This document shows positions 148-33,972 of a stretch of DNA of 64,000 nucleotides, piece by piece; position 1 is the first letter of the stretch, and the number at the start of each line of letters is the position of its first letter. The notes beneath the pieces are model-generated. The model worked only from the letters and a program-made list of their open reading frames with translations, did no database searches and was not told the DNA's origin. The stretch is from positions 8,963-72,962 of the forward strand of contig CAZUFC010000015.1 in the NCBI GenBank assembly GCA_964619725.1, written 5' to 3'. This stretch comes from an uncultured bacterium. Lineage in GTDB: Bacteria; CSSED10-310; CAZUFC01. The position numbers were made by a program, and so were the translations under genes.

Positions 148-1071
148 TTATTCTTCTTGCGTTTTGGATATCAGATTCTTACTTATCAAAAATTCTGCTG
201 CAACGTCAGACGGTCTTTCATCCTGTTCATCCACCCTGTAGTTCATCTCCGCCATTTCTTTATCGGAAATCGTATTTGCCGCCTCTTCCAGTAAATTTTT
301 GAGTTCAGGATATTTTTTTAAAATTTTTGAATGCACCACGGGAGCGGCTTCATAAGGGGGGAAGAATTCTTTATCGTCTTCAAGCATAGTTAAATTAAAC
401 GCGGGAATGCGTCCGTCCGTCGCAAATCCGCAAATAACGTCCACGTCGCCCTTTGCTATCGCCCTATACATTAAACCCGAATCCATTTCCAAAGGCTCTT
501 TTTCAAATTCAAATCCATAATGTTTCGTCAATCCGCGATATCCGTCCGGACGTTCGAGAAATTCATGGTTGAAACCCGCGGTTAAAGCATCCTTGTGTTC
601 TTCCAGGTCAGTTATGGTTTCTATTCCCAACTCTTCCGCCTGCTGTTTCCTCATCGTCAGGGTATAAGTATTGTTGAATCCCAACGGTTTCAACCACTGC
701 ATATTCCATTTTTCTCTGAACTGTTTTTCAACGATGTCGAACACCTTCTGAGGATCGCTCATGGCTTCCTGGTTCAAAATAGCCGTCAGTCCTGTACCGG
801 TGTATTCCACGTAAAGGTCCAGTTCTTTATTTTTCAGTGCGTTGAAACAGACGAAGGTGCCGCCGAGATTGAATTTTTCCTCAATTGGAATGTTGAGCCG
901 CTCGTTGATCAATTGCGACATAATTTCGCCGAGAATGATCTGTTCGGTGAAATTTTTGGATCCGATGCGAATGACCGCGGGGGCTTTGACCAGTTTGTCG
1001 GCGAATGAGAAGATCAACAGAATGATTATGACTGTCAGGAATACTCCTATAGTTTTCGTTTTATTCGTCAT
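148..1071 (-). CDS. Glycine betaine/choline/carnitine ABC transporter substrate-binding protein (OpuBC/OsmX family)
   Basis: IGSKNFTEQ, DLYVEYTGT, LGFNNTY, ERPDGY, ATDGRI and FFPPY motifs; N-terminal membrane anchor. Confidence 0.92.
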   Translation of the reverse strand: MTNKTKTIGVFLTVIIILLIFSFADKLVKAPAVIRIGSKNFTEQIILGEIMSQLINERLNIPIEEKFNLGGTFVCFNALKNKELDLYVEYTGTGLTAILNQEAMSDPQKVFDIVEKQFREKWNMQWLKPLGFNNTYTLTMRKQQAEELGIETITDLEEHKDALTAGFNHEFLERPDGYRGLTKHYGFEFEKEPLEMDSGLMYRAIAKGDVDVICGFATDGRIPAFNLTMLEDDKEFFPPYEAAPVVHSKILKKYPELKNLLEEAANTISDKEMAEMNYRVDEQDERPSDVAAEFLISKNLISKTQEE

Positions 1072-1080
1072 GATAAAAAA

Positions 1081-1731
1081 TCACTTCCTTTTGTTTTTCA
1101 ATCCCGGTGTCAGGAAATTTTCGAGTCTGCCGAACAGGAAATCCAGCAAAAGAGCCAGTATGGCTGCAGGAACGGCTCCTGCGAGTATCATGGAATTATT
1201 GACCATGGAGATGCCTCTGAAGATGAACTGTCCCAGGCCGCCGGCGCCTATGGCTGCACATAGAGTGGCGATTCCGACGCAAATAACGGTTGAGATGCGT
1301 ATGCCTGACATGATCATGGGCAGAGCGAGCGGCAGCTCAATAATAAAAAGAATCTGGGCGTCTTTCATCCCCATGCCCCGTCCAGCTTCCTTGAGGGCCG
1401 CATCGACCTGATCGATGCCCGTATACGTGTTCCTGATAATGGCCAGGAGGGAATACAGAAACAGAGCGGTAACGGCGGGGACGGTGCCTATGCCTCCGAT
1501 TATGGGAATGGGCAGGAGGAATCCCAGGAGCGCCAGACTCGGTATGGTCTGAATGACTCCGGCAATCCCCAGTACGTATTTCGCCATCCATCTGATCCTC
1601 GTCAATACAATCCCGACGGGTATGCCGCATAATATGGCGAGCAGAACGGATATTCCCGACAACCGGAGATGCTCCAAGGTCAGCCGGAGAATTTCATATT
1701 TTCTTTCCAGGACAAAAGAGAAAAAGTTCAT
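1081..1731 (-). CDS. Quaternary-amine ABC transporter permease (OpuBB/ProW-like)
   Basis: IQTIPSLALLG, EAA loop (EAGRGMGM), IELPLALP, GAGGLG. Confidence 0.92.
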   Translation of the reverse strand: MNFFSFVLERKYEILRLTLEHLRLSGISVLLAILCGIPVGIVLTRIRWMAKYVLGIAGVIQTIPSLALLGFLLPIPIIGGIGTVPAVTALFLYSLLAIIRNTYTGIDQVDAALKEAGRGMGMKDAQILFIIELPLALPMIMSGIRISTVICVGIATLCAAIGAGGLGQFIFRGISMVNNSMILAGAVPAAILALLLDFLFGRLENFLTPGLKNKRK

Positions 1732-2510
1732 CTGGAACCGCCGTTTCCTGATTGAGTCTTCATGTAGGTTCGCAGGGCATCCCGGTGTCTTCCGACGAAA
1801 CGGTCCACAAATTCCGTTTGGGGATTCTTGAGGAGTTCTTCCGGTTTATCTATCTGTTCAATTTTTCCGTCTTTCATGACTGCAATCATGTCGCCCATCT
1901 TGACGGCTTCAAAAATGTCATGAGTCACCAGAACTATGGTTTTGCTGATCGATTCCTGTAATTTCAGGAACTCATCCTGAAGGTCTTCTCTCGTAACCGG
2001 ATCGAGAGCGCCGAAAGGTTCATCCATCAACAGAATCTCCTGGTACGCCGCTAAAGCCCGGGCTACTCCCACTCTCTGTTTCTGGCCGCCCGACAGCTCT
2101 TCCGGGAACCTGTCCTTGTATTCGGCCGGTTCCAATCCCACAGTATCCAGAACTTCATCGACGCGCCTGTCCATCCTCTCCTCTTTCCATCCCTTCAGTT
2201 TCGGCACCATCATTACATTTTCGCCGACGGTCAAATGCGGCAACAGGCCGACATCCTGGATGACGTATCCGATAGTCCTTCGTAAAGCTATAGGGTCCCA
2301 TTGTCTGACGTTTATGCCGTCAATGACGATGTCGCCGGAATCAGCTTCGACCAGCCTGTTGATCATCTTCAAAGTCGTGGTTTTTCCGCATCCGGATAAC
2401 CCGACAAGAATCAGTATTTCACCCTTGAAAACTTTGAAAGATACTTCATCTGCAGCTAAGACGTTTCCGGGAAACGTTTTGCTTGCTTTGTCAACGACTA
2501 TCATCGCCAT
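1728..2510 (-). CDS. Quaternary-amine ABC transporter ATP-binding subunit (OpuBA/OsmV-like, no CBS domains)
   Basis: Walker A GLSGCGKTT followed by LKMINRL, signature LSGGQKQR, Walker B LLMDEPFGALDP; 4-bp overlap with the permease gene. Confidence 0.93.
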   Translation of the reverse strand: MAMIVVDKASKTFPGNVLAADEVSFKVFKGEILILVGLSGCGKTTTLKMINRLVEADSGDIVIDGINVRQWDPIALRRTIGYVIQDVGLLPHLTVGENVMMVPKLKGWKEERMDRRVDEVLDTVGLEPAEYKDRFPEELSGGQKQRVGVARALAAYQEILLMDEPFGALDPVTREDLQDEFLKLQESISKTIVLVTHDIFEAVKMGDMIAVMKDGKIEQIDKPEELLKNPQTEFVDRFVGRHRDALRTYMKTQSGNGGSR

Positions 2511-2574
2511 CTTTTCGCATCTCTTCCTGGTTCAGAAATCCGCCTGTCCCGCAATGCCTCTCAAGACTAATCGA

Positions 2575-3387
2575 TCAATCCTCGAACTCGCCTTTCCTCA
2601 TCGCCCGGGAAAACTTCCTGCAGAATCTGTCCCTTCCCGCAATGACTTCTCCCAACAGGACCGCCTGCCGGATGGGTTTTCTGGTCGGGTCGCAGATAAC
2701 TGCGTTCAGACCGTGAGTGATGGCCGCGATTAAATAGGCCTGGTTTATCCTTAAACGTATCGGCAATCCATGGGAAATATTGGACAATCCCATTATCGTG
2801 TTCGTTCCGGGAAATTTCCGGTTCAACATGCGTATCGTATCCAGCGTCGTCATTCCGTTCTTTACGTCAGTCGAAACTGGAATAAGCAACGGATCAAAAA
2901 ATATGTCGTCGGCAGGAATGCCCTCATTCCGGGCCGCTTCATATATCGCCGTGCATATCTCAACCCTGCGGTCCGCCGTTTCAGGAATGCCTTCCGCATC
3001 CATCGCCATGCCGATGAAAGGAGCCTTATATTCAGCGGCTAAAGGCAGCAGTTCCCTCATGGTCTTCTCTTCGCCTTTTATTGAATTTAAAAGCCAGGAC
3101 CGGCTGTCCAACAATTTCTCGGCCGCCGTCCGAATGACATCCGGGTCCGCAGAATCTATCGCAAAACGCTTCTCCGTCTTCTCCATCGCCAGATCGATCA
3201 TCCATTTCATGCTCTCCTTCTCACGCTCGCGTCCCCCAATGCCCGTACCCACGTTCAAATCGATGTAATCGGCTCCGGCCTTGTCCTGACGCTCTATCTC
3301 ACGACCAATAAGCTCCTCATTCCGTTCGCCTACAGCCTTCTTGATCGATTTCCTCGTTGCGTTTACTCGCTCGCCTACTATAATCAT
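2575..3387 (-). CDS. Pterin-binding methyltetrahydrofolate:corrinoid methyltransferase (AcsE/MtgA-like, DHPS-fold)
   Basis: MIIVGERVN, GADYIDLNVG, IDS, LNSI, IFFDPL and GLSNISHGLP motifs. Confidence 0.88.
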   Translation of the reverse strand: MIIVGERVNATRKSIKKAVGERNEELIGREIERQDKAGADYIDLNVGTGIGGREREKESMKWMIDLAMEKTEKRFAIDSADPDVIRTAAEKLLDSRSWLLNSIKGEEKTMRELLPLAAEYKAPFIGMAMDAEGIPETADRRVEICTAIYEAARNEGIPADDIFFDPLLIPVSTDVKNGMTTLDTIRMLNRKFPGTNTIMGLSNISHGLPIRLRINQAYLIAAITHGLNAVICDPTRKPIRQAVLLGEVIAGRDRFCRKFSRAMRKGEFED

Positions 3388-3392
3388 GATCG

Positions 3393-4892
3393 TTATACCC
3401 TTGAATAACTTTCCGCATCAATGGCTGAAAAGTCTTCCATAATTTCCTCTATATCAGAATCAGACAGATAACTTTCAACCGGATCATTGAGTATCTCTCT
3501 CACCTTGTCGTGAGCCTTCTCTGCAGTCGTCAATTCGCCGCTGTCTTCCCACTCTTCACGGTGGTCCCTGTCGCTCAGCTCAGGCTGATAATGCTCACCA
3601 TGCATATGCCTGCGCGTGTGACGACTCGCCACAAAATGTCCGCCAGGTCCTACCTTTCTGATAACATCCACCGCCAGCGTCTCCTCGTTCACTTCAATCC
3701 CGTTCGCCGCTCGTAAAGCCATTCCCAGTATCTCATTATCGATCACCAGCTTCTCCTTGCTCACCGTCATCGCAAATTCCATCAATCCGGCAGCATCATG
3801 AATAAAATCGCCGCCGGCCAGGGCCACCAGAAGATTGTTTATCGCCGATTCATAGCCGCATTGCGCATCCAGCGTCTTTGAATCGCTTATCCCGGCCGTA
3901 CCGTAATAAGGTATTTCATAAAACCTGGCCAACTGCGCTGATGCAGCGTTCAACAGGCCGCTCTCTACCGGAGCCCCCAGGTACTTCATGTCACGGAAAT
4001 CCGCCGACGTTGCCACGCATCCGTATATCACCGGAGCCCCCGGATTGACTAATTGCGACAGCATTACATTGATCAATGAATCGCAATTCTGTATCAGAAG
4101 GTTGCCGGCCAGAGTCACTGGCGACGTCGTTCCGCATAAAGGCTCAACCGGTACCGCCACTGGTATTCCCTGTTCCGCTACCTGCATTAAATAATGTCCA
4201 TACTTGTCGTCCAACTTTAAAGGACTTATACCGCACGTTATTATCGATATTATCGGCCGCTCCCGCAGCGCCTCAGGCGATCCCATCACCTTCTCCGCCA
4301 TCCTGATTACATTGCGGATTCCCTCCGATGTGTAAACGCCGCCCATTACATGCTTCGACGTATACATCAAACCCGTGAAAAATCGGTTCTCATCCACTCG
4401 CTCCACCGGCAATTCATTCGGATACGTCGGCAAAAGCAATATATGGATGTTGTCAAGCCTGTCCACTATCCTCGCAATGTCTATCAGATCGCTCAATTCT
4501 GCTCTTGTACTCGTCTGGTTCTCATAATCATATATGTTCAACGCCGTGCCGCCCGTGCCGAAATACACGTTATCGCCTCCCAGCGCCGCATTGTGTCGGT
4601 CCTCACGCCCGTACAAAGTTATTTGAGGAGGTACTGTCGATAATATCTCCTGTATTCGAGACTCCTTCAACTTTATTATTCTATTGTCCGAATCATATTC
4701 ATAAGCTATGTCCTTGAATAATTCGAAAGCCCTTTCATTATGAACCTCGAATCCGACTTCCGCAAATACCTCCATCGTCGCTTCGTGCAACTTCATTAAA
4801 TCCAATGAATTCAACGGCTTATACCCTCGCTCAGCCGCTACTGAGCGGATCGTCGATAATACTTCTCGCTCTAACAGTTCTCTGTTCGTCAC
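3393..4892 (-). CDS. Non-pyrrolysine MttB-superfamily (quaternary amine):corrinoid methyltransferase
   Basis: SPLKLD, TSPVTLAG, PGAPVIYG, SDSKTLDAQCGYES, VGPGGHF. No in-frame amber codon; Ile occupies the position before SDSK where MttB has Pyl. Confidence 0.9.
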   Translation of the reverse strand: MTNRELLEREVLSTIRSVAAERGYKPLNSLDLMKLHEATMEVFAEVGFEVHNERAFELFKDIAYEYDSDNRIIKLKESRIQEILSTVPPQITLYGREDRHNAALGGDNVYFGTGGTALNIYDYENQTSTRAELSDLIDIARIVDRLDNIHILLLPTYPNELPVERVDENRFFTGLMYTSKHVMGGVYTSEGIRNVIRMAEKVMGSPEALRERPIISIITCGISPLKLDDKYGHYLMQVAEQGIPVAVPVEPLCGTTSPVTLAGNLLIQNCDSLINVMLSQLVNPGAPVIYGCVATSADFRDMKYLGAPVESGLLNAASAQLARFYEIPYYGTAGISDSKTLDAQCGYESAINNLLVALAGGDFIHDAAGLMEFAMTVSKEKLVIDNEILGMALRAANGIEVNEETLAVDVIRKVGPGGHFVASRHTRRHMHGEHYQPELSDRDHREEWEDSGELTTAEKAHDKVREILNDPVESYLSDSDIEEIMEDFSAIDAESYSRV

Positions 4893-5965: not shown

Positions 5966-7429
5966 TCATTCCGAGCAGGGAGAATGCTGGTCGTCGAATC
6001 TGAAAACCATGAAGTCGGAATTATCGAATACAGGTTCAAAAGAGTTATTGCAATCCCGAATGAAGTACTGAAGATAATCGACATCTTCCAGAAAAAAATC
6101 GCTCAGAACGACATAATCCGCATCGATACTCCTCATGTAGCGAATGAGTTCAAGATAGGGGTGCGCCGGATGGTAAACCGAGGCTTTTCTATCTGTGAAG
6201 AACGCGAGGACGCGTGGTTTTCTGAAAATAAAAACGTCCTCCTTTTCGGTATGCTCTCTGATGAAATCGAAAAGTTCAACGGTATGCGTGACTGCGATTC
6301 CTTCCTGTATAGGACCGAAATTAATGGTGGTGTATTTGGCGAAAAGGGAAGCGAAGAAGCATAGAATAATCGTCCAGCCTGTAAGTTTAAGCAGATGTTT
6401 TCTTTTCACGAAAAAACGATGGAGAGCGATAAAGGCATAGAAAAGAAAAAGGATATAAAGGGGGAACAGGTAACGTTTCACGGAAAAGGGCCAGACGAAT
6501 ATGACGGCGAGATAGACCATGACGAAGAATTCAAGTACGGAGCAGTTTTTCCTGATTTTTGTGATGAATCCGGCGCATGCGAGAGCTGCTGAGACCAGGA
6601 AGAGTAGAAAGTGCAGAAGCGAGTCGTATCCGTTATCCCAGAGGAGCGACAGATCGATGATATAGTCCCAGACATTGTTGCAGAGCAGGCTGATGTCTGA
6701 GGTAAGATTCCGCAAGTAATCGGTTTGACCGCCCAGGACCAATTGCTGACAGAGTATCAGAGCGAACCCCACTGACAGGGCTATGAGGTTGAAAGGGGTG
6801 AGTTTTTTATTTTTAATAAGGCGACAGGCGATCATGGATGGAAGAATGACGATGCCGATTGTCCGTGTTCCGTAGGCCAGCCAGGCGAGAAGACCGGTAA
6901 AGACGGCATGGAAGCGGTGCGGGAGGGGAAAGCCGGCTGTTTTGGGTTCCTTCATGACGGCAAAAAGCGCTGCAAATGCGAAAAAAAGGAAAGGAAAGTC
7001 CGACAAAATGAGGTCTTTGTGAGTCCAGAACAGGGGATGAAGGCCGATAAGGAGGAGCAGCAGCAGAGAATAAATGTAAGGCAAGGTTTCCGAGAATACG
7101 AAATAGATTATCAGTAGAGCCAGAATGAATGTCGTTATAACCTGACATTTCATAAGAAGCATATTAAGTCCGAAAAACTTAATGATCGGGGCGAGTATGC
7201 AGGGAAACACGGGCGGATAAGAAACCGGTCCCAGTTTGGGATAATTCGGATTAAAAATGTATCCGGTTTCTCCGTAAGGCCGGCCTTCGATTATGTTTAC
7301 GGCATGCGCCAGATAACCGCTGAAATCGCCTCCCCAGTATTGCCCTTGCCTGATCGTGAGGATATAGAAAAAAGCGATGGAGATGAGAACAGCGATCAAT
7401 CCGATTGATTTTCGAGTTTTTTCTTTCAT
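5966..7429 (-). CDS. GT-C fold (ArnT/PMT-like) polytopic membrane glycosyltransferase
   Basis: After TM1: GD..GYLAHA..I..G.PY and YPPVFP; also ILSD.PF and R..G motifs, about 11-13 TM segments and a soluble C-terminal domain. Start placed at ATG 7429 (MKEKTRK). Confidence 0.7.
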   Translation of the reverse strand: MKEKTRKSIGLIAVLISIAFFYILTIRQGQYWGGDFSGYLAHAVNIIEGRPYGETGYIFNPNYPKLGPVSYPPVFPCILAPIIKFFGLNMLLMKCQVITTFILALLIIYFVFSETLPYIYSLLLLLLIGLHPLFWTHKDLILSDFPFLFFAFAALFAVMKEPKTAGFPLPHRFHAVFTGLLAWLAYGTRTIGIVILPSMIACRLIKNKKLTPFNLIALSVGFALILCQQLVLGGQTDYLRNLTSDISLLCNNVWDYIIDLSLLWDNGYDSLLHFLLFLVSAALACAGFITKIRKNCSVLEFFVMVYLAVIFVWPFSVKRYLFPLYILFLFYAFIALHRFFVKRKHLLKLTGWTIILCFFASLFAKYTTINFGPIQEGIAVTHTVELFDFIREHTEKEDVFIFRKPRVLAFFTDRKASVYHPAHPYLELIRYMRSIDADYVVLSDFFLEDVDYLQYFIRDCNNSFEPVFDNSDFMVFRFDDQHSPCSE

Positions 7430-7507
7430 GATTCGAGAGCTGTCGGCAAGAGTTAACGGAAAATCTGTCTGCATTATAATTGAATCAGACAGAAATGGCC
7501 GGCTCTT

Positions 7508-7656
7508 TTTCAAAAAATTGTTTGTATGAGAAAGCCGGGTTGGAACTTTATTTTCTAATTGTAATTCGCTCAATTCAATTCTTTGATTTCTCTGATTTTT
7601 CATGTATAATGATAGACGTCTCATCAGAGAAAACCGGCTTTCAACAACTTTTGAAA
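7508..7656. repeat. About 150-bp AT-rich segment bounded by imperfect inverted repeats (MITE/IS-remnant-like), abutting the broken 5' end of the next gene
   Basis: Left arm TTTCAAAAAATTGTT...GAAAGCCGGGTT (7508-7541); reverse complement of the right arm (7631-7656) is TTTCAAAAGTTGTTGAAAGCCGGTTT. Confidence 0.4.
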
Positions 7657-7693
7657 TACCGGGGTCATTTATTCGGCGAATTCCCTGACCAGG

Positions 7694-10663
7694 ATGCGAG
7701 GAAACGTATGCAGCAATAACGACGGCAACGGCTTTGAAGTCTACAGTGAGAGTTACGGTTCATCCTATTCGGTGGACATTGAAATAGGCAACTGCGAATT
7801 CAACTCCAACAACAACAACAACAACGGCGTTTATCTTTCTCTGCTGCCGCCCGTAACGGTATTCTGTTCAAACAGTTCATTTCATCACAACTGGGATATG
7901 GGGATTCACCAGAAAAACGGAAAAGGCACATACATTCAGAACGACGTTTACTGGAATGCTGATTACGGGGTATATTTTACGGAAAGCGTAGGAGTCAACA
8001 GATTCTACTACGGCAACATATATTCCAACGACACGTATGAAATGTATAACGATACGGGTTATGCAGCGGACGCTCGTAACTGCTGGTGGGGAGATTTGAC
8101 CGCAGCGCAGATGAATGCCTGGGGTTACTCGGCCGACATATGGCTTTTATATGACGTTCATGATTATTACGGATCGGGCATGATTGATTACAGGGGCTGG
8201 AAAACAACCCCCGTCGATACTTCCGGGGACCCCGTATCGTATATTATCGATCCGATGGACGGGACGGTTATGCCTCCGGGAGATTTTACGGTTACGGGCG
8301 TAGCGTGCGCCTATCCGGGGATATTCAGAGTGGACATGAGTACCGATGGAGGCTCAAACTGGCTTCCGGCCGTCGGCAAAGAAACCTGGACCTGGGATTG
8401 GACTCCGTTAACGGGGGGAACCTATAATCTTGTTTCCAGATCAGAGGATAATGACGGAAATGTAGAAATACCAGGTTCCGGTGTCGACGTGACTATTGAT
8501 GAAGGCTTGATCCATTCCTGGGGGACCCTGTATGAAGATGAAACCTGGAGCGGGATAGTATCGGTAACCGGCGATGTTGAGGTTCCCGAAGGCTTGACTC
8601 TGACCATTTTGCCGGGAACATACGTTATCTTTGCGGCCTTGAGGGATGATTCCATATCGGGAGCGGATACTTCGCGTTGCGAGATCATCGTGCGAGGCGC
8701 GCTTATTGCGGACGGCGAACCGGCCGACGTGATTACATTCACCAGCGATGAAGTATTTCCTGACCCCAAGGATTATTACGGCATTCGTTTCATTAACGCG
8801 GACGACGATATCTCGCTGCTGGATCATTGCGATATTCAGTACGGTCATATTGGCATCGCCCTCAGTTCAACATCTCCGCACATCTCCAACTGCAGGATAG
8901 GCAATCACTGGCACAGAGGCATTTCAGGAACTCCGTCCGCTCACGAACTTGTCATTGAAACCAGTGAAATTTTTCAATGCGGCTCCAACTCCGACGGACA
9001 CGGCGTTTACATTAAATGTTCTGCGGATGCGAGTCTCCAATTCAACGGCAACCATTCGCATCATAACTACGCTAAAGGCGTTTACTTCGATAATTATTTC
9101 ATAAGCAATCCGATTCTTACGATAAACGACGGCACGTTCAATGAAAACGGAGACGACGGCGTTTACGTCAAACACATGTATACTTCGAATGGAACGCTGA
9201 ATTTCCAGGGTAATGAATCATACAACAACGACAACGACGGACTGGAAATTTACTGCGACAGTTACGGTTCATCTTACGCGCTGAATTTTTCCTTTCAGGA
9301 TTGCCGGTTCGATCTGAACGGAAACCACGGAATGAACGTGGTGGGAAAGACTTCGACCACATTGAACTGCATGAACAGTCAGTTCATTCATAATGAAGAA
9401 TACGGCATATATTTCAGCGGCGGACTGGCGACTTTCTCCTATAATGAAATCGCTGATAATGAAGATTACGGCGTGCGCTTCCACAATACGCAGGGAATAA
9501 CCATGTTCGATCAAAACAGTCTTTACGCCAATGATACGTATGAAATGTACAATGATTCTTCCTATGCGGTTTCCGCCCAAAGCTGCTGGTGGGGGATTGA
9601 GGCGACGGCTGAAATGGATGCCTACGGTTATCCGTATAACATAACGAAAATCTATGACATCCACGATAATTCATCGAAAGGGCAAGTCGATTACAGAAAT
9701 TGGCAATCCGAAGTGTTGCCCACGATTACAGCCACTGCAGGACCGTCTTTCACTCCCGGTCCGCCGACTGAAACGCCCACCACAGCGCCGACAGGTCCTC
9801 CGCCCACATCGACTCCGATTACGCCGACGAACACGCCTGAACCGACCGCCACCATTACCCCGACCCTCGTCTGCCTGAACGACGGTGATGTAGACGACAA
9901 CGGCAGACTGACTCCCAGAGATTCCAAATTAGCTTTCGACATATATCTGGACATTTTTACCGATCCTACACATGATGAATGGTGTTCCGCAGACTGCAAC
10001 GACAGCGGCGGCGTTACACCCGATGATGTCCAATGCATTTTCCAGCATTACCTGCAGATGGGCTGCGATTGCGTTGACCCAATCGAAAAATTCAATCTTT
10101 TTAACCGGTCATTCAAAACTAATCGCTCCCCTGATCTGATCAATTTCCTGATGGAGCCTTCAAGCCTGCATAATTCAGCCCCCCGCATTTCCTCCCGGGA
10201 CGCTGCGCTGGAGTTGCAAACATCCTCGGACGGGAAAATCAAAATGGCGATCCACTATGATAAAACTTCCAAAACGCTGATGCTTACCCTAAGTATCCAT
10301 CCCTATCGAAATGCCGTTCAGGCCTGGGGATTCAACCTGCAATACCAGGAGAGGATTCTTGGATTCAAACGCGCTTCATTTTCTGACGGTCTTTCCGACT
10401 GGATGTTTAAAGGTGTCGAGAGATTCGATTCTGCCATCGTTGCGGGCGCATTCAGTTCTCATCTATGTATACCCGCGGATTCGGAAACGGAAGCGCTTAC
10501 CTTTTTCTTCGAGTTGAAACCGAATCGTGAAATATTGGAAGACGACTATATTTTACGACTTACAGATTTTGTGGATGACATCAAACATTTCAATGCGGTT
10601 TTCGCCTCTTCAGAAAAACTCAATTATTCTGCAATCGCTGATAACCATCAGTTACGCGACTGA
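7694..10663 (+). CDS. Large surface-type protein: parallel beta-helix repeats, Ig-like domain, Pro/Thr linker, dockerin-like domain and C-terminal cohesin-like domain; appears 5'-truncated
   Basis: N..N...G(I/V)Y beta-helix repeats with an internally duplicated block (YEMYND..YA..A..CWWG twice); Ig-like V..G.A...RVDMSTDGG.NW..A.G...W...WTP; PT-rich linker; paired Ca-loops DVDDNGRLTPRD and DCNDSGGVTPDD (9872-10084); C-terminal domain aligns with the repeats of 10687-12201. No signal peptide. Confidence 0.75.
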   Translation: MRGNVCSNNDGNGFEVYSESYGSSYSVDIEIGNCEFNSNNNNNNGVYLSLLPPVTVFCSNSSFHHNWDMGIHQKNGKGTYIQNDVYWNADYGVYFTESVGVNRFYYGNIYSNDTYEMYNDTGYAADARNCWWGDLTAAQMNAWGYSADIWLLYDVHDYYGSGMIDYRGWKTTPVDTSGDPVSYIIDPMDGTVMPPGDFTVTGVACAYPGIFRVDMSTDGGSNWLPAVGKETWTWDWTPLTGGTYNLVSRSEDNDGNVEIPGSGVDVTIDEGLIHSWGTLYEDETWSGIVSVTGDVEVPEGLTLTILPGTYVIFAALRDDSISGADTSRCEIIVRGALIADGEPADVITFTSDEVFPDPKDYYGIRFINADDDISLLDHCDIQYGHIGIALSSTSPHISNCRIGNHWHRGISGTPSAHELVIETSEIFQCGSNSDGHGVYIKCSADASLQFNGNHSHHNYAKGVYFDNYFISNPILTINDGTFNENGDDGVYVKHMYTSNGTLNFQGNESYNNDNDGLEIYCDSYGSSYALNFSFQDCRFDLNGNHGMNVVGKTSTTLNCMNSQFIHNEEYGIYFSGGLATFSYNEIADNEDYGVRFHNTQGITMFDQNSLYANDTYEMYNDSSYAVSAQSCWWGIEATAEMDAYGYPYNITKIYDIHDNSSKGQVDYRNWQSEVLPTITATAGPSFTPGPPTETPTTAPTGPPPTSTPITPTNTPEPTATITPTLVCLNDGDVDDNGRLTPRDSKLAFDIYLDIFTDPTHDEWCSADCNDSGGVTPDDVQCIFQHYLQMGCDCVDPIEKFNLFNRSFKTNRSPDLINFLMEPSSLHNSAPRISSRDAALELQTSSDGKIKMAIHYDKTSKTLMLTLSIHPYRNAVQAWGFNLQYQERILGFKRASFSDGLSDWMFKGVERFDSAIVAGAFSSHLCIPADSETEALTFFFELKPNREILEDDYILRLTDFVDDIKHFNAVFASSEKLNYSAIADNHQLRD
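7808..7825 (+). repeat. (AAC)6 in-frame microsatellite encoding poly-Asn
   Basis: AACAACAACAACAACAAC; the duplicated block downstream has only NGNHG at the equivalent place. Confidence 0.8.
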
Positions 10664-10686
10664 TCCTCCGGAAGGTGGTGCATTTA

Positions 10687-12201
10687 ATGAAATTACCAAG
10701 GTTTTACTCGTCGGCGGCATCGCTTTTCTTAGTCTCACTCCTGATTAGTTACGGTACAATCGCCTTCTTTCCTGAAACATGGGCGATCACCCGGCAAAAC
10801 GACGTTATATGGGCGGAAAACAGCACGGGGTGTTCGGGAGCCGTTGTCTCAATTCCGGTCATGATTGAAAATTCCGACACGGAAGTTGCCGCTTTCGGAT
10901 TCGATCTGCATTATTGCCCTGATATGCTGGAATTCGTCTCGTGCACCAACGGCCAATTGACCGCAGGCTGGTACTTTCTGGAGTGTAATGAATGGGAAGC
11001 CGGAATTGTGAGAGCCGGGGGTTTCAGCATGACACCCATTCCGACGGGAAGTAACGGCAGCATAGTGGTTTTACGTTTTTCCGTCACTTGCGAAAATTGC
11101 GATCTATACGACGAATGCATAACAAACATGACGAATCTTGAAGATGATCTGATCGGTTGGACGACTTTACCCGGAACATTTACATATTATTGCGATCCGA
11201 CATTTACGCCTACTGCAACACGATCGCCTACTCCCACTCCCACCCCCACGCACACCCCTTTGAGCGACGTCATACAGGTTGAAAATTCTTCCGGGTGCTT
11301 CGACGAAATGATCGAAATTCCCGTAAACGTTTCTAATCCTAACAGCAGCCTGGTCAGCTTCGGTTTCGAATTGTCCTATTCAACCGATATGCTGGAATAT
11401 AAATCTTGCGCCGCAGGGAATCTGACCGCCGGCTGGCCTTATCTGGACTGCAATGAAATCACGCCAGGAACTATCGTCGCAGGCGGCTTCGGTGAAACGC
11501 CCATTCCTCCAGGAAATAACGGAAGCATAGTAATACTGCAGTTCAACATAATCTGCGAAACGTGTGAAAACGACGACCTATCCTCCCTGACGCTTTCCGA
11601 CCTGGTGGATGATGTGACTGATTGGGTTCCCTTGCCCGGAACATTCACCTATTACTGCGCCCCTACGCCTACTTTCACGCCTTCACCTCCTCCGACTTAT
11701 ACTCCCATTCCAACGGACGACTATTTGTGGGCAGATGAAATATCAGGCTACGCAGGCGAAGCGCTCCAGGCCGCCGTCTCCATTTCCAACCCTGATACGC
11801 CGCTTTCTTCTTTCGGATTCGAACTCAATTACGATCCCGATATGCTGAATTTTCTCTCATGCGATCCGGGCCTTCTGACTGCCGACTGGCCCTACCTGAA
11901 TTGCAACCAAATTACGCCGGGCCATATCATAATCGGAGGATTCAATTCAGAACCTCTGCCTGCCGGACAATCAGACAGCATCATTCTGCTTAACTTTCAA
12001 GTCGTATGCGAAAGTTGCTTTCACGGTGATCAATGCCCCCTGGCCTTTGACGATATGGTCGATGACATCGCTCACTGGGATGCGCAAAACGGAAAGTTCA
12101 CCTTCCTGCAGGTTTTCACAGTACCTGCCTTTAGCATATTCGGCGCACTCTCAGCCCTCTTCTTTCTATCACGGGCTTTAAGAAAAAAAGTGGGAGGTTA
12201 A
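10687..12201 (+). CDS. Secreted three-cohesin mini-scaffoldin-like protein with Pro/Thr linkers and a C-terminal sorting-like tail
   Basis: Signal peptide; three ~130-aa repeats (IPV.I.N....L.(A/S)FGF.L.Y..DML.F.SC..G.LTA.W..L.CN....G.I..GGF...PIP.G...SI..L.F...CE.C) separated by PT linkers; ends VPAFSIFGALSALFFLSRALRKKVGG. Start placed at ATG 10687 after GAAGGTGG. Confidence 0.78.
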   Translation: MKLPRFYSSAASLFLVSLLISYGTIAFFPETWAITRQNDVIWAENSTGCSGAVVSIPVMIENSDTEVAAFGFDLHYCPDMLEFVSCTNGQLTAGWYFLECNEWEAGIVRAGGFSMTPIPTGSNGSIVVLRFSVTCENCDLYDECITNMTNLEDDLIGWTTLPGTFTYYCDPTFTPTATRSPTPTPTPTHTPLSDVIQVENSSGCFDEMIEIPVNVSNPNSSLVSFGFELSYSTDMLEYKSCAAGNLTAGWPYLDCNEITPGTIVAGGFGETPIPPGNNGSIVILQFNIICETCENDDLSSLTLSDLVDDVTDWVPLPGTFTYYCAPTPTFTPSPPPTYTPIPTDDYLWADEISGYAGEALQAAVSISNPDTPLSSFGFELNYDPDMLNFLSCDPGLLTADWPYLNCNQITPGHIIIGGFNSEPLPAGQSDSIILLNFQVVCESCFHGDQCPLAFDDMVDDIAHWDAQNGKFTFLQVFTVPAFSIFGALSALFFLSRALRKKVGG

Positions 12202-12287: not shown

Positions 12288-14114
12288 TTACTGCCCCGTC
12301 TCTTCACCTGTCTGACGCGCCAATTGCTCCTTGTACCATTTTTTCGAGCCGAACCATTTCCTTTCTCTTTTATCGCCTTCCAGAAGCACGCTCACCGTAA
12401 ATCCTTTTCTTTTAGCGAAAAGCACGCCTTCTCTGCTGTTTTTGCACAATTTCAACCTGGCCAGCAGCTCCAGTCCCTGGCCGGAAACTTCCAGGTTTTC
12501 GGCCTCAACGCAATTGTTTTTTGCTCTTATATCGGCTGTAGCGGTAATATTTTTCGTCTCGAACAAACTGCCGAAGTATTTCCATAATTGTCGTTTCTCA
12601 GCGAATACAGCTACAACAGGTCTTGTATCCTGAAATTCAGCGGAAATGCCCGCTCGCATCGAAACAGGCTTCGACCAGTTCAATTCGCCTCTCATAATGC
12701 TTATTTTTCCCCACCAGTCACTATCCTTGTATTTATCGGGTCGATCTTCATCGTATAACTTTATGCTCTGTAATTGCACTTCTGAACCGTCCAGATCAAA
12801 ACGCTTGCCTTTCAGTTCGTCTGACCGGACCTTTGTCTTCACGGTTACCAGTCCCTTGAATCTCAAACCGCCGAACTGTATTTCCATATCTTCGCCCTTC
12901 AGATTTATTTGACCGCTTCCCTCGTCCTTCAAAGAAGAAAAATCCAAACGGCTGTTGATCGTCCCGTAACCTCCTAAAATTGAGAGGTCTTCAAGCTGCC
13001 CCATGTAGCTGTTGTAAATCGTTAAATCAGGAACCCTGGATTCAGGGATTTCCACGTACCCGCTTAATCCTTCAAAGGGCGGAGTCAGATTGTTCGACGG
13101 GGTTACCGCATGCAGATGAAAACCTGAGCCAAAAATGTAAGGTTCCGGCTGATTTTTCATTTTTACCTGGAAATCATTAAAATTTACATCAACCGTACTT
13201 TGGAATTGTCCTTCTTTTTCAGTAACCGACGCTTTTATGTGAGCTTCTCCAGAAGCGCTGTAATCAAGCACATCCACGGCAATATCATCAGCGTCCGCCG
13301 TTAACTGGGAACCCTCTTTCAATCTTCCCCAGTCCAGAGTCAGGTCAAATTCCATATTTCCGCTGCCTTGCAGGATAATCCACGGCGTCTTCTGAAAGTA
13401 ATAGTTGAGGAATTCCAGGCCGGCGGCGCTGGTTTCTCCTTTCAAACGGCCCGAAAAAAATTGCAGCGCCGATAAGTCTTTATGTTCGACCGGCGAAAAC
13501 GCCTTGCTTTTAAATTCAAGTTCTACATTGCTATAACCGGCCAAGCGCCTTTTACCGTCACGAATATCGCCGGAATTCGTCTGAAAACCGGCCTTGTTGA
13601 TTTTCATGTATTCTTTTCCCCGAAACCGTCCGTCCAGTTCAACCTGTCCTGAACCCGCAACAACATATTGCAAAATGGATATCTGTTCGACTTTATCCGC
13701 TTTGGCATCCCTGAATTCCAGAATCCAGCGGCCCTTTTTACGCTTTTCCCCGGCCTGCTCATCCTTCTTTATTTTCAGCATGGAAAATTTCAACCCGCTT
13801 CCTCTCAATCCGCCGACAGAGAATTTCTTTCCGATAAGGTATAATAAATTAATGGTTCCCTTTCCCTCATCAAGTTCCACTTTCCAGTCGAATTTTCTGC
13901 CGCTCCTTTCTATCACCAGGTCTTTCACCGACAGGCGTCCCGGCAGAAAACTCTGACCCTGCGACCAGGAAACCTTCAGCTTTTCAGGCCGGAGATTCAT
14001 AAGGTCATGACCGATTTCAGTATTAAAAAAAATCTGAGCGGCGCCGATGTAAGCCAATTCCAGCAGAATACATAATACGACAAGTCTGATTATCCATTTA
14101 ACTATTTTTTTCAT
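12288..14114 (-). CDS. Hypothetical N-terminally anchored, beta-rich periplasmic protein (AsmA/TamB-like repeating beta-groove, tentative)
   Basis: Single N-terminal TM helix, then 600 aa of alternating beta-strand-like sequence rich in G/L/K. Confidence 0.45.
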   Translation of the reverse strand: MKKIVKWIIRLVVLCILLELAYIGAAQIFFNTEIGHDLMNLRPEKLKVSWSQGQSFLPGRLSVKDLVIERSGRKFDWKVELDEGKGTINLLYLIGKKFSVGGLRGSGLKFSMLKIKKDEQAGEKRKKGRWILEFRDAKADKVEQISILQYVVAGSGQVELDGRFRGKEYMKINKAGFQTNSGDIRDGKRRLAGYSNVELEFKSKAFSPVEHKDLSALQFFSGRLKGETSAAGLEFLNYYFQKTPWIILQGSGNMEFDLTLDWGRLKEGSQLTADADDIAVDVLDYSASGEAHIKASVTEKEGQFQSTVDVNFNDFQVKMKNQPEPYIFGSGFHLHAVTPSNNLTPPFEGLSGYVEIPESRVPDLTIYNSYMGQLEDLSILGGYGTINSRLDFSSLKDEGSGQINLKGEDMEIQFGGLRFKGLVTVKTKVRSDELKGKRFDLDGSEVQLQSIKLYDEDRPDKYKDSDWWGKISIMRGELNWSKPVSMRAGISAEFQDTRPVVAVFAEKRQLWKYFGSLFETKNITATADIRAKNNCVEAENLEVSGQGLELLARLKLCKNSREGVLFAKRKGFTVSVLLEGDKRERKWFGSKKWYKEQLARQTGEETGQ

Positions 14115-14177: not shown

Positions 14178-14729
14178 TCATGATATGGCCGCAGTAATTG
14201 CTGCGGTTGAGTCTTCCTCATGCATTAAAAGCAGGTATAATCCGAAACCCAATAATATCGGCAGTTTTTCATCGCCCTGCATTCTGGGGTCAATGTCGGC
14301 CGTCGCCTGATTTTTAAAAATGTCCTTGAATTTCCGATCTTTTATGCCGGGGTTGAACCTGAGCAGCGTCTGAGCCTCGGCATCGTTGAATCCCCAGGCT
14401 GTACCCCAGAAATTGGAAGGTTTCCAGGCGTACGAACGTCCATCCTTAAACGTCAATACTCCATGCCCCCATAGATTGGATTTATACTCAGCCAGGTTCT
14501 CTTCCAAGCCTTCTGAACGGATTGTAATTCGCGGATTCATGAAACCGATGCGCTTGAAAGTCCAATTCCCGTATGCCGATTCCGTCAACGCCAGGGTCCC
14601 TGAACTGGAACGGAACGACAACTTACCGAGCAAAGCGTCGTTCGCCCATAGTTCAAACTTCCGTTCGCCGCTTTTCGGCTGAAGCCATTCCGCCTGCGGC
14701 GCCTCAATTTTACTCAATTGCGTCATCAA
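14178..14729 (-). CDS. Hypothetical protein (beta-rich with C-terminal hydrophobic helix)
   Basis: 183-aa ORF with AGGGAG RBS, co-oriented with its neighbours; no recognised motif. Confidence 0.6.
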   Translation of the reverse strand: MMTQLSKIEAPQAEWLQPKSGERKFELWANDALLGKLSFRSSSGTLALTESAYGNWTFKRIGFMNPRITIRSEGLEENLAEYKSNLWGHGVLTFKDGRSYAWKPSNFWGTAWGFNDAEAQTLLRFNPGIKDRKFKDIFKNQATADIDPRMQGDEKLPILLGFGLYLLLMHEEDSTAAITAAIS

Positions 14730-18285: not shown

Positions 18286-20808
18286 TCAGAATTTCATGCG
18301 TAAAACGAATTCGAATTCACGGGGCATAAAAGCGTATTGGGTGAAAGGACAAGTCGAATAAGAACTTCTTCCGTCACAAGGATAAAACGAATTTCCCTCT
18401 TCATTAAGCGCATTGTACAGATGAAGGCCCGTCCATAATTCCAGACCGAATTTTAATGGCCATTTTTTATTCAGATTGACCTCCAACATGTTTAATTCCG
18501 GGGCTTCGATCTGCTCAGTCCCGGCCGGTCCGCCTTCAGGATCAGCGATCCTGGTTCCCTTTTCATGCACCCACATTATCGCAGCCTGCCCGCCCCCCCA
18601 TGTCAGCCAATCGTATATCAACTGAGCGACGTATCTTTCTCCCGGATAGTTTTCGTATTGGACATCAACTTTTTTATAAGGAACGGCGCCTTCTGTCCAA
18701 AAGTCGTAGCGATGCGGAAATTCTTCGAAACTTTTCAACGGATTCCGGTAGGAACTGCCCTCTCCGTCAGCCCAGGCATAACCCGCCAGAAAACTGAAGT
18801 TTTTCCAGGTTCCCGTGAGAGAGAATTCAGCTCCAAGGACCTCTTCTCGCCCTGAATTCTGAAATTGATAACTGCGTTGTTCGGGAATCAGAGCGACTTT
18901 TTCGGACAATATCAATCTGTCGTTATAAATTTTGTAAAAAAGATCAGCGAGAATGTTTATATTGGGTGTGAGAAACGCCCGGCATCCTGCTTCGTAAACG
19001 GCATTTTTTTGTATCAGCAGGTTGTCGTTTCCGCGTTGGCCGAACAGGTTGCCTGTTTGCCGGTTAGCGGGAGAAGCAGCCCAGGTTTCTGTGAGAGGTA
19101 ATTGATGATGTTTACCGGCGTTGGCGAAAAGAATAACATTCCTGACAGGTTCGTAGGTAATTGCCAGATCGACGCTCAGCGCTGTACGAGTATTAAGGGG
19201 ACTGAACCAGAGCCATCTGAGACCGGGTTGGAAGGTCAACTTCGACATAGCCAGCCATTTATCCTGGATGAACAGTGAACCGGCATACCACTGTTCATCA
19301 TAAGTCCAGACAGCATTCCATTCCTCTTTTCCATCGTCGGGCCAGGTTTCCTCATCACCGACATAGGCTTTGATCGAATCCACATTAATAACGGATGCGT
19401 CAAACCCTAATTCCAACTCATTATCCAGAATGGACATCCAGATTATACCAGCTCTTATGCTCACCGCTTTTTCTTCCGCTTCGTCATAATAGGGAAAATA
19501 ATCAGCCTCTGAATTTTCAGGGTCCGTATAACGTTCGGGAGTCAGTATCTCGTCAGAATCGCTTCCTGCAGCGCCTGTTTTATAATTGCTGTGGGAATAT
19601 CGGACGATCCATGTCATAAACCTGTCGGGCGAGAACCTGTGATCAAATTTAACGTCCGTCATAAGGAATTTGCGGTTTTTCCGCATCGGCATATAATTCT
19701 GCAACAAGTAAAAATTTTCGTTGCGTTTCAAATAGTCGTCATAGATGAATTCAAGCGAAACCTCATTCCCCGGCGCCGGCATAATGGAAGTCCCTATCCA
19801 GTACCCGTTTTTCTGAGCGTACTTTTCATTGAGGAAAGGAGAAAATTTTTCCGCCTGATCTCTCGCCAGATAGCCGGCGAAGAACCAGTCATACATGCCG
19901 GATTCTCCGCCGAATGACCATAGTAAATTCCTTTTTTGAGCAGGTCCGGCATCACGGTCTGCAGACGCTGCTGCCTGACTCTGAGTTTCTTCATCGAAAA
20001 ACCCGTCATATCGCTCATCCGTCCATTCCTGTTCGCCGCCGACGATTCCTCTGAATTCCAGGTCCCCGAAAAAAGCAACCAGTCCGCGGCCGCTCCTGGG
20101 CGCCATAATAACTGTCCCTCCCAAACCTGAAGGCGTCTGCATGCCGAAAGAGGAAGGAATGAACCGGAATATTTTCATCACGGTCCACACAGGAAAATCT
20201 AATGCAGGATAACCGTCTAAAGCTCTATTCAAGGATAATCCGTCTTTAACGTAATTTATTTCGGCAGGTCTTGAAAAACGGCATTGTACAGCGCCGCGTT
20301 GATCAAAAACAGCCCCCGGATATAAACTTAACGCACGGAACATGGAACGGGAGAAAAATGCGTTGTTCTGCAAATCCTTTTTTATGAATTCCGATATGCC
20401 CCATACTCCCTGATAAGAAACGGATTTCCGGTCAACCGCCTTTTCTTTCTCGTATATTTCCGGTATCAGGACGAAATCTATTACTGAAGACCGGCCGATG
20501 ATTATTTCGACGCTTTCACGCTTTACAGGTACAAATCCCTCCCGCCTGGCGGTTATATCATACTTACCGGGCAATAAAGGCGCCAGACAATAACGCCCCA
20601 GGTCGTCCGTTGTCGCTTTTAATGATAAATTCTGCTCTTCTTTGCCGAATACCAATACTTCTACGTTCTCCAGCGGCGCACCCGTATCGTCATTGACCGT
20701 CCCGCGCAGGAGACCGGATGGATGAGCATAAACAGCATGATGGACAAGAAAAATGTTTACGACAAGAAGGAGTGGAATTGAACCTGTGAAAGTTAATCTG
20801 TGACGCAT
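18286..20808 (-). CDS. TonB-dependent receptor with N-terminal carboxypeptidase-regulatory-like domain
   Basis: GLLRGTV.D.TGAPL.NVEV...TTD..G.Y....L.PGKY.I.A...GF; plug-like segment (SLYPGAV...EINYVKDG); F.QDKW...LT..PGLR; YNALN; C-terminal Phe (LRMKF). Confidence 0.8.
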   Translation of the reverse strand: MRHRLTFTGSIPLLLVVNIFLVHHAVYAHPSGLLRGTVNDDTGAPLENVEVLVFGKEEQNLSLKATTDDLGRYCLAPLLPGKYDITARREGFVPVKRESVEIIIGRSSVIDFVLIPEIYEKEKAVDRKSVSYQGVWGISEFIKKDLQNNAFFSRSMFRALSLYPGAVFDQRGAVQCRFSRPAEINYVKDGLSLNRALDGYPALDFPVWTVMKIFRFIPSSFGMQTPSGLGGTVIMAPRSGRGLVAFFGDLEFRGIVGGEQEWTDERYDGFFDEETQSQAAASADRDAGPAQKRNLLWSFGGESGMYDWFFAGYLARDQAEKFSPFLNEKYAQKNGYWIGTSIMPAPGNEVSLEFIYDDYLKRNENFYLLQNYMPMRKNRKFLMTDVKFDHRFSPDRFMTWIVRYSHSNYKTGAAGSDSDEILTPERYTDPENSEADYFPYYDEAEEKAVSIRAGIIWMSILDNELELGFDASVINVDSIKAYVGDEETWPDDGKEEWNAVWTYDEQWYAGSLFIQDKWLAMSKLTFQPGLRWLWFSPLNTRTALSVDLAITYEPVRNVILFANAGKHHQLPLTETWAASPANRQTGNLFGQRGNDNLLIQKNAVYEAGCRAFLTPNINILADLFYKIYNDRLILSEKVALIPEQRSYQFQNSGREEVLGAEFSLTGTWKNFSFLAGYAWADGEGSSYRNPLKSFEEFPHRYDFWTEGAVPYKKVDVQYENYPGERYVAQLIYDWLTWGGGQAAIMWVHEKGTRIADPEGGPAGTEQIEAPELNMLEVNLNKKWPLKFGLELWTGLHLYNALNEEGNSFYPCDGRSSYSTCPFTQYAFMPREFEFVLRMKF

Positions 20809-20817
20809 TACCTGGAG

Positions 20818-33942: not shown

Positions 33943-33972
33943 TATTCAATCTCCTCGGTAATGCCCGCTATC

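Follow-up and report, generated by a model that had tools for sequence, protein, structure and literature searches.

A two-gene locus at positions 7694 to 12201 of a 64,000-nucleotide stretch of DNA from an uncultured bacterium of the candidate phylum CSSED10-310 (GenBank assembly GCA_964619725.1, contig CAZUFC010000015.1, positions 8,963 to 72,962; the whole stretch is hereafter called the window) appears to be one copy of a multi-copy, cellulosome-like, non-cellulolytic surface-display module in a diderm host. To this reading, together with the mechanism proposed in the Discussion, we assign a probability of roughly 0.6. The upstream gene (gene 1) encodes a beta-helix protein that is predicted to end in a dockerin and a cohesin, and the downstream gene (gene 2) encodes a protein in which a signal peptide, three cohesins, and a candidate sorting signal follow one another. 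The copy in the window is itself probably partly defective.

Results

Two open reading frames (ORFs) on the forward strand fill the interval, 7694-10663 (989 aa, P0001) and 10675-12201 (508 aa, P0002), and their spacing is operon-like. The likely start of gene 2 is the ATG at 10687, because this codon lies 8-10 nt past a Shine-Dalgarno-like site, GAAGGTGG (10671-10679), which itself stands 8 nt past the gene 1 stop. Read from this ATG, gene 2 (10687-12201) encodes a 'mini-scaffoldin' of 504 aa that is 100% identical to its database counterpart, P0003. The protein opens with a Sec-type signal peptide, MKLPRFYSSAASLFLVSLLISYGTIAFFPETWA (10687-10785), which was judged by eye and with no predictor. 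It continues with three cohesin modules of about 129 aa each, at 10807-11193 (8 Cys), 11272-11658 (6 Cys), and 11725-12108 (5 Cys, without the first and last conserved Cys), which are joined by two Pro/Thr linkers that can be read directly from the sequence (11200-11262 and 11665-11715). It closes with the tail VPAFSIFGALSALFFLSRALRKKVGG (12121-12198, also read directly), in which VPAFSIFG is followed by a short hydrophobic stretch and RALRKK.

The Pfam Cohesin model (PF00963) gives 71 bits over three stretches of gene 2, and each module taken singly exceeds the cut-off of 24.1 bits (26.9, 26.2, and 25.3 bits for cohesins 1, 2, and 3, respectively). Profiles built from the genome itself match the same modules at E 3e-52, 4e-47, and 1e-47. 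Moreover, when a profile made from 44 cohesin modules of this genome was compared with the PDB, nine of nine matches were cohesins (E<=0.01, best E 7.6e-8). By homology, then, the modules of gene 2 are true cohesin homologues. An initial annotation, made from the letters alone, had described this gene as a signal peptide, three Cys-rich cohesin-like modules with PT linkers, and a tail with a VP motif, a hydrophobic stretch, and a basic end; Pfam and direct reading bear out each of these parts, and all three modules pass the gathering score of PF00963, the model against which that annotation proposed to check them.

Gene 1 (7694-10663) encodes a 989-aa beta-helix protein that ends in a dockerin-cohesin cassette. 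Pfam recognizes in it a Big_7 bacterial Ig-like domain (8231-8431; 24.2 bits against a cut-off of 24.1) and a right-handed beta-helix repeat unit (8522-9718; PF13229, 62.2 bits, best stretch residues 361-493), after which a Pro/Thr-rich linker was read directly (9719-9859). The Cys-rich dockerin (9872-10078; own profile E 3e-33) has six family-invariant Cys and two 12-residue Ca-loop motifs, DVDDNGRLTPRD (9887-9922) and DCNDSGGVTPDD (9992-10027). Both motifs, read directly, match the duplicated Ca-loop pattern position by position (D1, D/N3, D/N/S5, G6, hydrophobic 8, and D12), and the loop pair that had drawn attention to this gene is present and fits the dockerin pattern. Among 18 paralogues, C6, C43, C47, C60, C70, and C72 are invariant together with D11, D22, and D57, while D46 is kept in at least 90%; the window dockerin keeps every invariant Cys and Asp of the family. 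A linker of about 50 aa leads from the dockerin to a divergent, Cys-poor module with a single Cys (10238-10609).

The assignment of these two C-terminal modules follows from paralogue profiles, hhalign, and matches to cohesins in the PDB, and not from a direct Pfam match. With the dockerin stretch (85 aa) as a tblastn query, 24 further places in the genome were found at 41-73% identity. The Pfam Dockerin_1 cut-off is passed at 11 places in the genome, nine of which belong to this Cys-rich family, and among 18 aligned dockerin-cohesin cassettes Dockerin_1 is recognized in six and Cohesin in nine. A profile of the gene 1 C-terminal module and its seven closest paralogues aligns with a cohesin profile in hhalign at 99.6% (E 1.6e-23, 120 columns); the profile of this eight-member subgroup alone matches a PDB cohesin weakly (E 0.98), and the profile of the whole cassette finds PDB cohesins at E 3.7e-5. 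The first 70 positions of the cassette profile match only dockerins in the PDB, weakly (E 0.07-0.6). By homology, therefore, gene 1 ends in a dockerin and a divergent fourth cohesin; the post-dockerin cohesin is also placed by the cassette profile and by its clade in the tree described below.

Genome-wide, an iterated profile found 27 dockerin modules in 25 ORFs, and our own profiles found 57 cohesin modules in 34 ORFs. A dockerin is followed by a cohesin within one chain in 20 cases among the 27 dockerins, at the C-terminus of proteins of 1,000-12,076 aa. Eleven dockerin proteins lie, on the same strand, upstream of a gene that encodes only a signal peptide, one to five cohesins, and a tail. 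These dockerin-then-anchor loci are found on contigs C2 (twice), C8 (two in tandem), C15 (the window), C20, C64, C86, C97, C122, C131, and C154. Ten of the dockerin-anchor pairs are directly adjacent, with gaps of -4 to 156 nt, and the first C8 gene is one gene further off; the C131 dockerin has no cohesin after it. Five dockerin-cohesin proteins bear the tail themselves (C7, C19, C34, and two on C182). At 12,076 aa, the ORF at C34:1739-37969 exceeds all other members of the family in length; it has a signal peptide and, at its end, a dockerin, a cohesin, and the tail.

In a tree of the cohesin modules, each of the three window cohesins groups with the module of the same number in the C2 anchor, and the whole operon has therefore been duplicated. 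The post-dockerin cohesins of eight loci, the window among them, form a separate, Cys-poor, long-branched clade (support 99/93). Congruence between dockerin and cohesin trees was considered as evidence of binding specificity and was dropped as uninformative, because whole operons were duplicated together. Across 54 cohesin modules (numbered after cohesin 1), Cys residues co-vary in the pairs 12-132 (phi 0.82), 40-107 (0.79), 98-101 (0.90), and 49-63 (0.48), correlations that are overstated because the 54 rows are related paralogues and not independent; cohesin 3 has lost both Cys 12 and Cys 132. Such paired gain and loss fits disulfides or metal sites and supports the earlier suggestion of disulfide-stabilised variants.

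The dockerin census had been proposed as a check on the initial annotation, and the cargo that it brings together is rich in beta-helices. Pfam searches of 11 of the 25 dockerin ORFs gave Beta_helix, NosD, Big_7/Ig, one PLD-like/TIG, and one Laminin_G_3 match, and no glycoside hydrolase family was found in these 11. The window had been described as free of glycoside hydrolases, and none was found in the 42 window ORFs scanned. Dockerin-borne carbohydrate-active enzymes, by which a cellulosome is recognized, were not found in the ORFs scanned, although lyases or hydrolases of an uncharacterised kind might yet be hidden among the beta-helix domains. Some Pfam matches fall outside the Cys-rich family, namely dockerins at C9:20059-20217 and C45:21436-21597 and cohesins at C106:13798-14643 and 24155-24556, C59:4663-4983, C12:74221-74469, and C19:55731-56090, and these may represent a second, independent set in the genome. 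A pseudogene-like cassette, with a dockerin and two cohesin pieces spread over three short ORFs and a TAG within the Pfam match, is located at C12:40012-40745.

In the anchor proteins, the common elements of the tail are [IV]P-[ASC]-x3-5-G, a hydrophobic stretch, and a K/R cluster, in most cases preceded by a Pro/Thr spacer, and the consensus in the genome is PPPIPA(L/F)SxxG. A profile was built from 149 tails, with the motif, the hydrophobic helix, and the basic cluster contained in the last 45 aa. At E<1e-3 it matches 208 of 11,968 ORF C-termini, compared with zero in a reversed control. When the 11,968 ORFs were searched for the exact motif [IV]PAFS..G, 11 instances lay within the last 40 aa and not one elsewhere in 3.0 million residues. 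Of the approximately 208 tail-bearing ORFs (for example, L001:4151-4285, C134_13957_16587), many are 1,000-6,400 aa long, and the set looks like a large, undescribed sorting-signal regulon. Seven of the 11 anchor tails that follow a dockerin score between 3.1e-7 and 1.6e-9, those of C122 and C154 score 0.005-0.008, and those of C86 and the window lie above E 0.01 by the first tail profile; a stand-alone cohesin protein on C5 has a tail at E 3e-7. The window tail has no spacer and its hydrophobic stretch is short, and we consider it a weak, apparently degenerate member of the [IV]P-type sorting-signal family of this genome.

A single gene of the exosortase/archaeosortase family was found in the genome, at C134:12955-13527 on the reverse strand (190 aa). 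Its product scores 65.7-67.9 bits with TIGR04178 (cut-off 23) and 35.5 bits with PF09721 (cut-off 25.7), and by its scores it belongs to no named exosortase sub-family and is closest to XrtH/ArtB. XrtH is the enzyme associated with IPTL-type signals. The divergent neighbor of the exosortase-like gene encodes an 876-aa protein with the same tail, and five of five same-phylum relatives have exactly one exosortase-family gene each. TIGR04174, the IPTL-CTERM model of 27 positions at the extreme C-terminus, was found at nine places (E<=1) in a six-frame search of the genome; two of these exceed the cut-off, and contig C15 and the cohesin proteins are not represented among the nine. When 16 tails (15 from the cohesin/dockerin family and that of the exosortase neighbor) were searched against NCBIfam, none passed TIGR04174 or another sorting-signal family; weak matches to 'midcut-by-XrtH' in five of the 16 (E 0.02-0.13) are a hint only. 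Because some 208 similar tails, one exosortase-family gene, and two tails above the IPTL-CTERM cut-off occur together in this genome, the anchor is probably of the exosortase C-terminal kind and not of the SLH or sortase kind, with the window tail a marginal case.

The 5' end of gene 1 is unusual. A stop at 7652-7654 closes the frame 13 codons before the ATG, and the in-frame stretch that remains (7655-7693, forward strand, seen in the stop-to-stop ORF) contains neither a start codon nor a signal peptide. No signal peptide was found in gene 1, whose reading frame opens in the middle of a repeat unit, and no obvious Shine-Dalgarno site precedes 7694. A tblastn self-match of gene 1 residues 495-677 starts at C15:16629, which is window position 7667 and lies upstream of the ATG, and a 61-nt direct repeat at 7714 and 9223 is spaced by 1509 nt, the length of one 503-aa unit. 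Over its whole length, gene 1 corresponds to residues 763-1725 of a C2 paralogue of 1740 aa (55% identity, 974 columns), which, like most other paralogues, has a clear N-terminal signal peptide. Because the signal peptide is missing, the frame is closed, homology extends upstream of the ATG, and only part of the paralogue is matched, gene 1 is probably a 5'-truncated copy from which about 760 N-terminal residues, the signal peptide among them, are missing.

At this locus, gene 1 is most likely a truncated, non-exported remnant, while gene 2 looks intact with a weakened tail. The locus may not build a surface scaffold, since gene 1 has no export signal and is apparently 5'-truncated. A second sample of the same study contains identical (100%) short contigs, with depth in bins 7485-7878, yet among the pieces listed there is none that explicitly crosses the 5' end of gene 1. 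The probable source sample does have a contig that extends over this region, which is not independent evidence for the junction. A scan for promoters and terminators gave counts at the level of shuffled sequence.

Related modules are found in the same phylum. The dockerin profile matches 11 of 41 genomes searched, all of them same-phylum relatives, and all six genomes of one family contain 22-70 dockerin copies each. In these genomes, dockerin-cohesin cassettes are accompanied by poly-cohesin ORFs and by many cargo proteins that terminate in a dockerin. In one related metagenome-assembled genome (MAG), a scaffoldin-like ORF at L027:4967-7300 has three cohesins and a dockerin end in place of the tail and directly follows a dockerin-cohesin giant, an arrangement that points to hierarchical (adaptor) assembly in relatives. 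When 1.84 billion representatives were searched exhaustively with a profile, 3692 proteins were found at E<=1e-3, 269 of them at E<=1e-30. Among the 135 foreign proteins within the best 150 matches, and with C for cohesin and D for dockerin, the architectures were C-D-C (32), poly-C (26), D-C (23), Cn-D (18), C-D-Cn (12), C-D (8), Cn-D-C (7), poly-C with tail (5), D-C with tail (2), and others (2). As judged by these matches, three-cohesin proteins with this tail exist in other genomes. A paper on CSSED10-310 predicts Gram-negative, anaerobic heterotrophs and leaves these modules unmentioned (PMC8248873). The Pfam accession PF28492 is listed on P0013 and P0029, a foreign beta-helix, dockerin, and cohesin protein and the C64 paralogue, and may already describe one of these parts.

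The remainder of the window characterizes the host. Two adjacent barrels of the TonB-dependent-receptor type, one with a CarboxypepD_reg N-domain, are encoded at 18286-22722 on the reverse strand, and Lgt and signal peptidase II (LspA) lie near them at 33145-34527; because of these genes the host is called diderm, in agreement with the initial annotation. Divergent from gene 1, a large multi-pass membrane protein at 5966-7624 (reverse strand) has no family match even at E<=1; the idea that it might be a glycosyltransferase for the Pro/Thr linkers was set aside as a guess without support, as there is no Pfam match. Pfam gave nothing for the flanking genes at 5969-7429, 12291-14114, and 14181-14729. 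A second large multi-pass membrane protein, at 28742-30316 (reverse strand), has a weak PMT_2 (protein mannosyltransferase-like) match. At 148-4892 (reverse strand), an OpuAC glycine-betaine-type binding protein, an ABC permease and ATPase, a pterin-binding/CdhD-like protein, and an uninterrupted MttB-family methyltransferase form a cluster that looks like non-pyrrolysine quaternary-amine demethylation. A caspase (Peptidase_C14) domain joined to a beta-propeller-like part (54678-56600) adjoins a Ser/Thr kinase with an N-terminal zinc ribbon that is fused to an FGE-sulfatase-type domain (57004-59292).

Discussion

In the mechanism that we propose, the poly-cohesin protein would be exported by Sec, and its tail would be recognized by the single small exosortase-family enzyme (closest to XrtH/ArtB), so that the protein is fixed to the cell envelope. 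Its cohesins would then capture the dockerins of beta-helix proteins with Ca2+, and up to three such proteins could be displayed per anchor. The post-dockerin cohesin would offer one more socket, by which the complexes might extend or branch. Paired Cys residues probably form disulfides that stiffen both module types. We infer every binding step from family knowledge, gene order, and co-occurrence.

Several observations weigh against this proposal. Pfam Dockerin_1 (PF00404) gives no match to the window dockerin, even at E<=10 on a 92-aa piece for which EF-hand_7 (E 0.022) is the sole Pfam match, and Pfam Cohesin (PF00963) does not match the C-terminal module of gene 1 in the window copy. The initial call of a dockerin with a fourth, divergent cohesin is upheld by the homology to paralogues and by hhalign, while Pfam misses both modules here; in the PF00404 search that had been suggested for it, the window dockerin remains below recognition and paralogues pass. 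The window tail reaches only E 1.4 (8.3 bits) and 2.2 with the genome tail profile, a level at which the reversed control has four matches (E<=2). It has no NCBIfam match, and TIGR04174, the very family to which the initial annotation had thought of assigning it, gives none at E<=10. That annotation's view of a CTERM-type anchor agrees with the genome-wide tail family and the exosortase-family gene and less well with the window tail, which fails TIGR04174 and is marginal against the genome profile. The exosortase-like protein is below the specific cut-offs for XrtH (76.6 < 86) and ArtB (78.2 < 150), and we know of no cleavage or attachment chemistry for this type of tail. Four dockerin-cohesin proteins (C18, C25, and C276/C277) are without a tail, and no anchor gene lies next to theirs. 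The genome is a 9.17-Mb MAG in 344 contigs (91% complete, 6.5% contamination), and its quality counts on the same side, as does the relatedness of the rows behind the Cys correlations. Finally, gene order and co-duplication are no proof that these dockerins bind these cohesins.

It is possible that the locus in the window is a dying paralogue, with gene 1 a non-exported pseudogene, the anchor of gene 2 crippled, and the functional system residing at other loci; we regard this as a tentative alternative that falls short of even odds. The lack of a signal peptide and of any upstream start, the homology that runs past the first ATG to the stop, the correspondence of gene 1 to an internal part (residues 763-1725) of a 1740-aa paralogue that has a signal peptide, and the lack of an obvious Shine-Dalgarno site before 7694 speak for decay of gene 1. 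With a length of 1.88 (median 0.55), the terminal branch of the window post-dockerin cohesin is the second-longest in the tree, cohesin 3 is without one conserved Cys pair, and the tail, at E 1.4, is devoid of the Pro/Thr spacer of most paralogues. However, the ORFs are open throughout (989 and 508 codons), the invariant dockerin Cys and Asp are all retained, and gene 2 has kept its signal peptide and its Shine-Dalgarno site, as well as three cohesins that are significant in Pfam. Its tail has the exact motif [IV]PAFS..G, which is specific to C-termini, and the spacer is likewise absent from the single-cohesin anchors at C86 and C122.

Other readings concern the system as a whole. If dockerins bound mainly the cohesin that follows them, folding back as a self-capped, stable didomain, or that of another copy, giving reciprocal dimers or head-to-tail polymers, they would have their main receptor elsewhere than in the downstream poly-cohesin protein. 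A cohesin does follow almost every dockerin (20 cassettes for 27 dockerins), and C-D-C is the commonest foreign architecture (32 of 135 within the best 150 matches); moreover, the linker of about 50 aa allows fold-back, post-dockerin cohesins fall in their own clades, and four cassettes have no anchor gene nearby. Self-assembly of this kind would nevertheless leave about 32 scaffoldin-type cohesins nearly partnerless, as only some four or five dockerins have no cohesin after them, and a functional link is favored by the close spacing of the 11 gene pairs on the same strand; in relatives, dockerins mostly stand at the extreme C-terminus of the cargo with no following cohesin. We consider self-assembly unlikely. 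A plain transmembrane helix in place of a sorting signal, which would hold the cohesin proteins in the inner membrane and the complexes in the periplasm, seems to us quite improbable. The conserved [IV]P-x-x-x-x-G ahead of the helix on approximately 208 proteins is typical of sortase-like recognition signals, a single exosortase-family gene adjoins a tail-bearing protein here and is also present in five of five relatives, and beta-helix/Ig-repeat cargo of 1,000-12,000 aa is typical of surface proteins; furthermore, the S-layer of the diderm Methylomirabilis is formed by an IPTL-CTERM protein (PMC8671808). The hydrophobic stretch and basic end are, for their part, as in any stop-transfer anchor, and the missing NCBIfam sorting-signal match and the sub-cut-off scores of the exosortase-like protein are in keeping with such a helix. 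Loss of binding altogether, which would leave the modules to act as Ig-like spacers and as Ca-binding stabilisers within long surface fibres, is very improbable. Outside cellulosomes the 'function ... not known' of cohesins and dockerins is on record (PMC5244752), but here the Ca-loop residues are invariant, the two module types strictly co-occur in this genome as in its relatives, whether on one chain or on neighboring genes, and both expand together in the same genomes.

Beyond the proposed display module, a bolder and doubtful extension may be considered. The D-C and C-D-C cassettes of the giant beta-helix proteins might act as self-complementary connectors, with exosortase-processed poly-cohesin bases nucleating non-covalent chains or branched lattices that envelop CSSED10-310 cells as their outer coat. 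The result would be a modular 'exoskeleton', dependent on Ca and stiffened by disulfides, in which cohesin sub-types (scaffoldin against Cys-poor post-dockerin) encode the order of assembly. If true, bacteria would have a third means of surface construction in addition to S-layers and pili.

Of the non-covalent protein connectors known, cohesin-dockerin pairs count among the strongest. This genome provides a clean natural test system, with 11 operons that each combine cargo and its own anchor, one dockerin subtype, at least two cohesin subtypes, a C-terminal sorting signal on approximately 208 proteins, and one candidate sorting enzyme. If the proposed mechanism is true, exosortase-type sorting would be linked to cohesin-dockerin assembly, and surface biology would be described for a little-known candidate phylum. 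The Cys-rich modules could also serve protein engineering as orthogonal, disulfide-stabilised connectors.

Comparison with known systems

Among the cell-anchored scaffoldins of Firmicutes, ScaE of Ruminococcus flavefaciens consists of a cohesin and an LPXTG sortase signal, while ScaB and ScaA are adaptor scaffoldins. The present system resembles these in the order of signal peptide, tandem cohesins with Pro/Thr linkers, and C-terminal sorting signal, and in its two-loop Ca-binding dockerin partners, its dockerin-cohesin adaptors, and its clustered genes. It differs in that the host is diderm and the anchor is an [IV]P...G/transmembrane/basic tail and not LPXTG or SLH. The cargo consists of beta-helix/NosD/Ig repeats with no recognized glycoside hydrolase (11 of 25 dockerin ORFs), the dockerin has six invariant Cys and most cohesins have four to eight, and 11 separate small operons of cargo with its own anchor take the place of one large cluster.

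The IPTL-CTERM/XrtH and VPXXXP-CTERM/archaeosortase B systems (TIGR04174, TIGR04177, and TIGR04144) share with this genome an I/V-P motif, a hydrophobic helix, and a terminal basic cluster. The likeness extends to a signal carried by many secreted proteins of one genome and to one exosortase-family membrane protein of about 190 aa, and two tails of this genome pass TIGR04174. On the other hand, the consensus here is PPPIPA(L/F)SxxG and not IPTL, the window tail and all 16 tails searched fail TIGR04174, and the enzyme is below the cut-offs.

Non-cellulosomal cohesins and dockerins were reportedly surveyed by Peer and colleagues in 2009. Expansions of both modules are described in ANME archaea (PMC5244752). 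In such cases, as here, large numbers of the modules occur in organisms that do not use cellulose, and they are suspected of taking part in adhesion or in contact between cells; the present case is distinguished by a repeated operon, a defined anchor signal with a candidate enzyme, a Cys-rich subtype, and a bacterial candidate phylum as host. The dockerin-type giants of Omnitrophota (bioRxiv 10.1101/2023.11.21.568195) are likewise huge extracellular repeat proteins with dockerin-like Ca modules, for which beta-helices and a role in attachment have been proposed. Unlike the proteins considered here, they are described, in the portion of the text available, with many dockerin/thrombospondin repeats along the chain and C-terminal transmembrane and SecA-like parts, and neither a single C-terminal dockerin-cohesin cassette nor a partner poly-cohesin anchor gene is described in that portion.

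A further precedent is the 'planctosome' hypothesis for freshwater Planctomycetes (Nemodlikiaceae), in which the adaptor comprises a signal peptide, a dockerin, and a cohesin (PMC6461901, as far as the available text extends). There too, a non-cellulolytic cohesin-dockerin complex is proposed for a diderm, with a dockerin-cohesin adaptor and a cohesin on the anchoring protein. That anchor is a lamin-tail domain protein and the cargo consists of peptidases, and the same text describes no exosortase-type signal, Cys-rich variants, or multi-copy operon family. The newness implied by the initial annotation is reduced by these reports, since non-cellulosomal systems and a diderm dockerin-cohesin adaptor had already been published (PMC6461901 and PMC5244752), while an exosortase-type signal tied to cohesin-dockerin modules, the Cys-rich subtype, and the repeated cargo-plus-anchor operon were not found in print by a literature search. 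We regard the system as real and non-cellulolytic, probably anchored through an exosortase, and as a variant of an already known kind.

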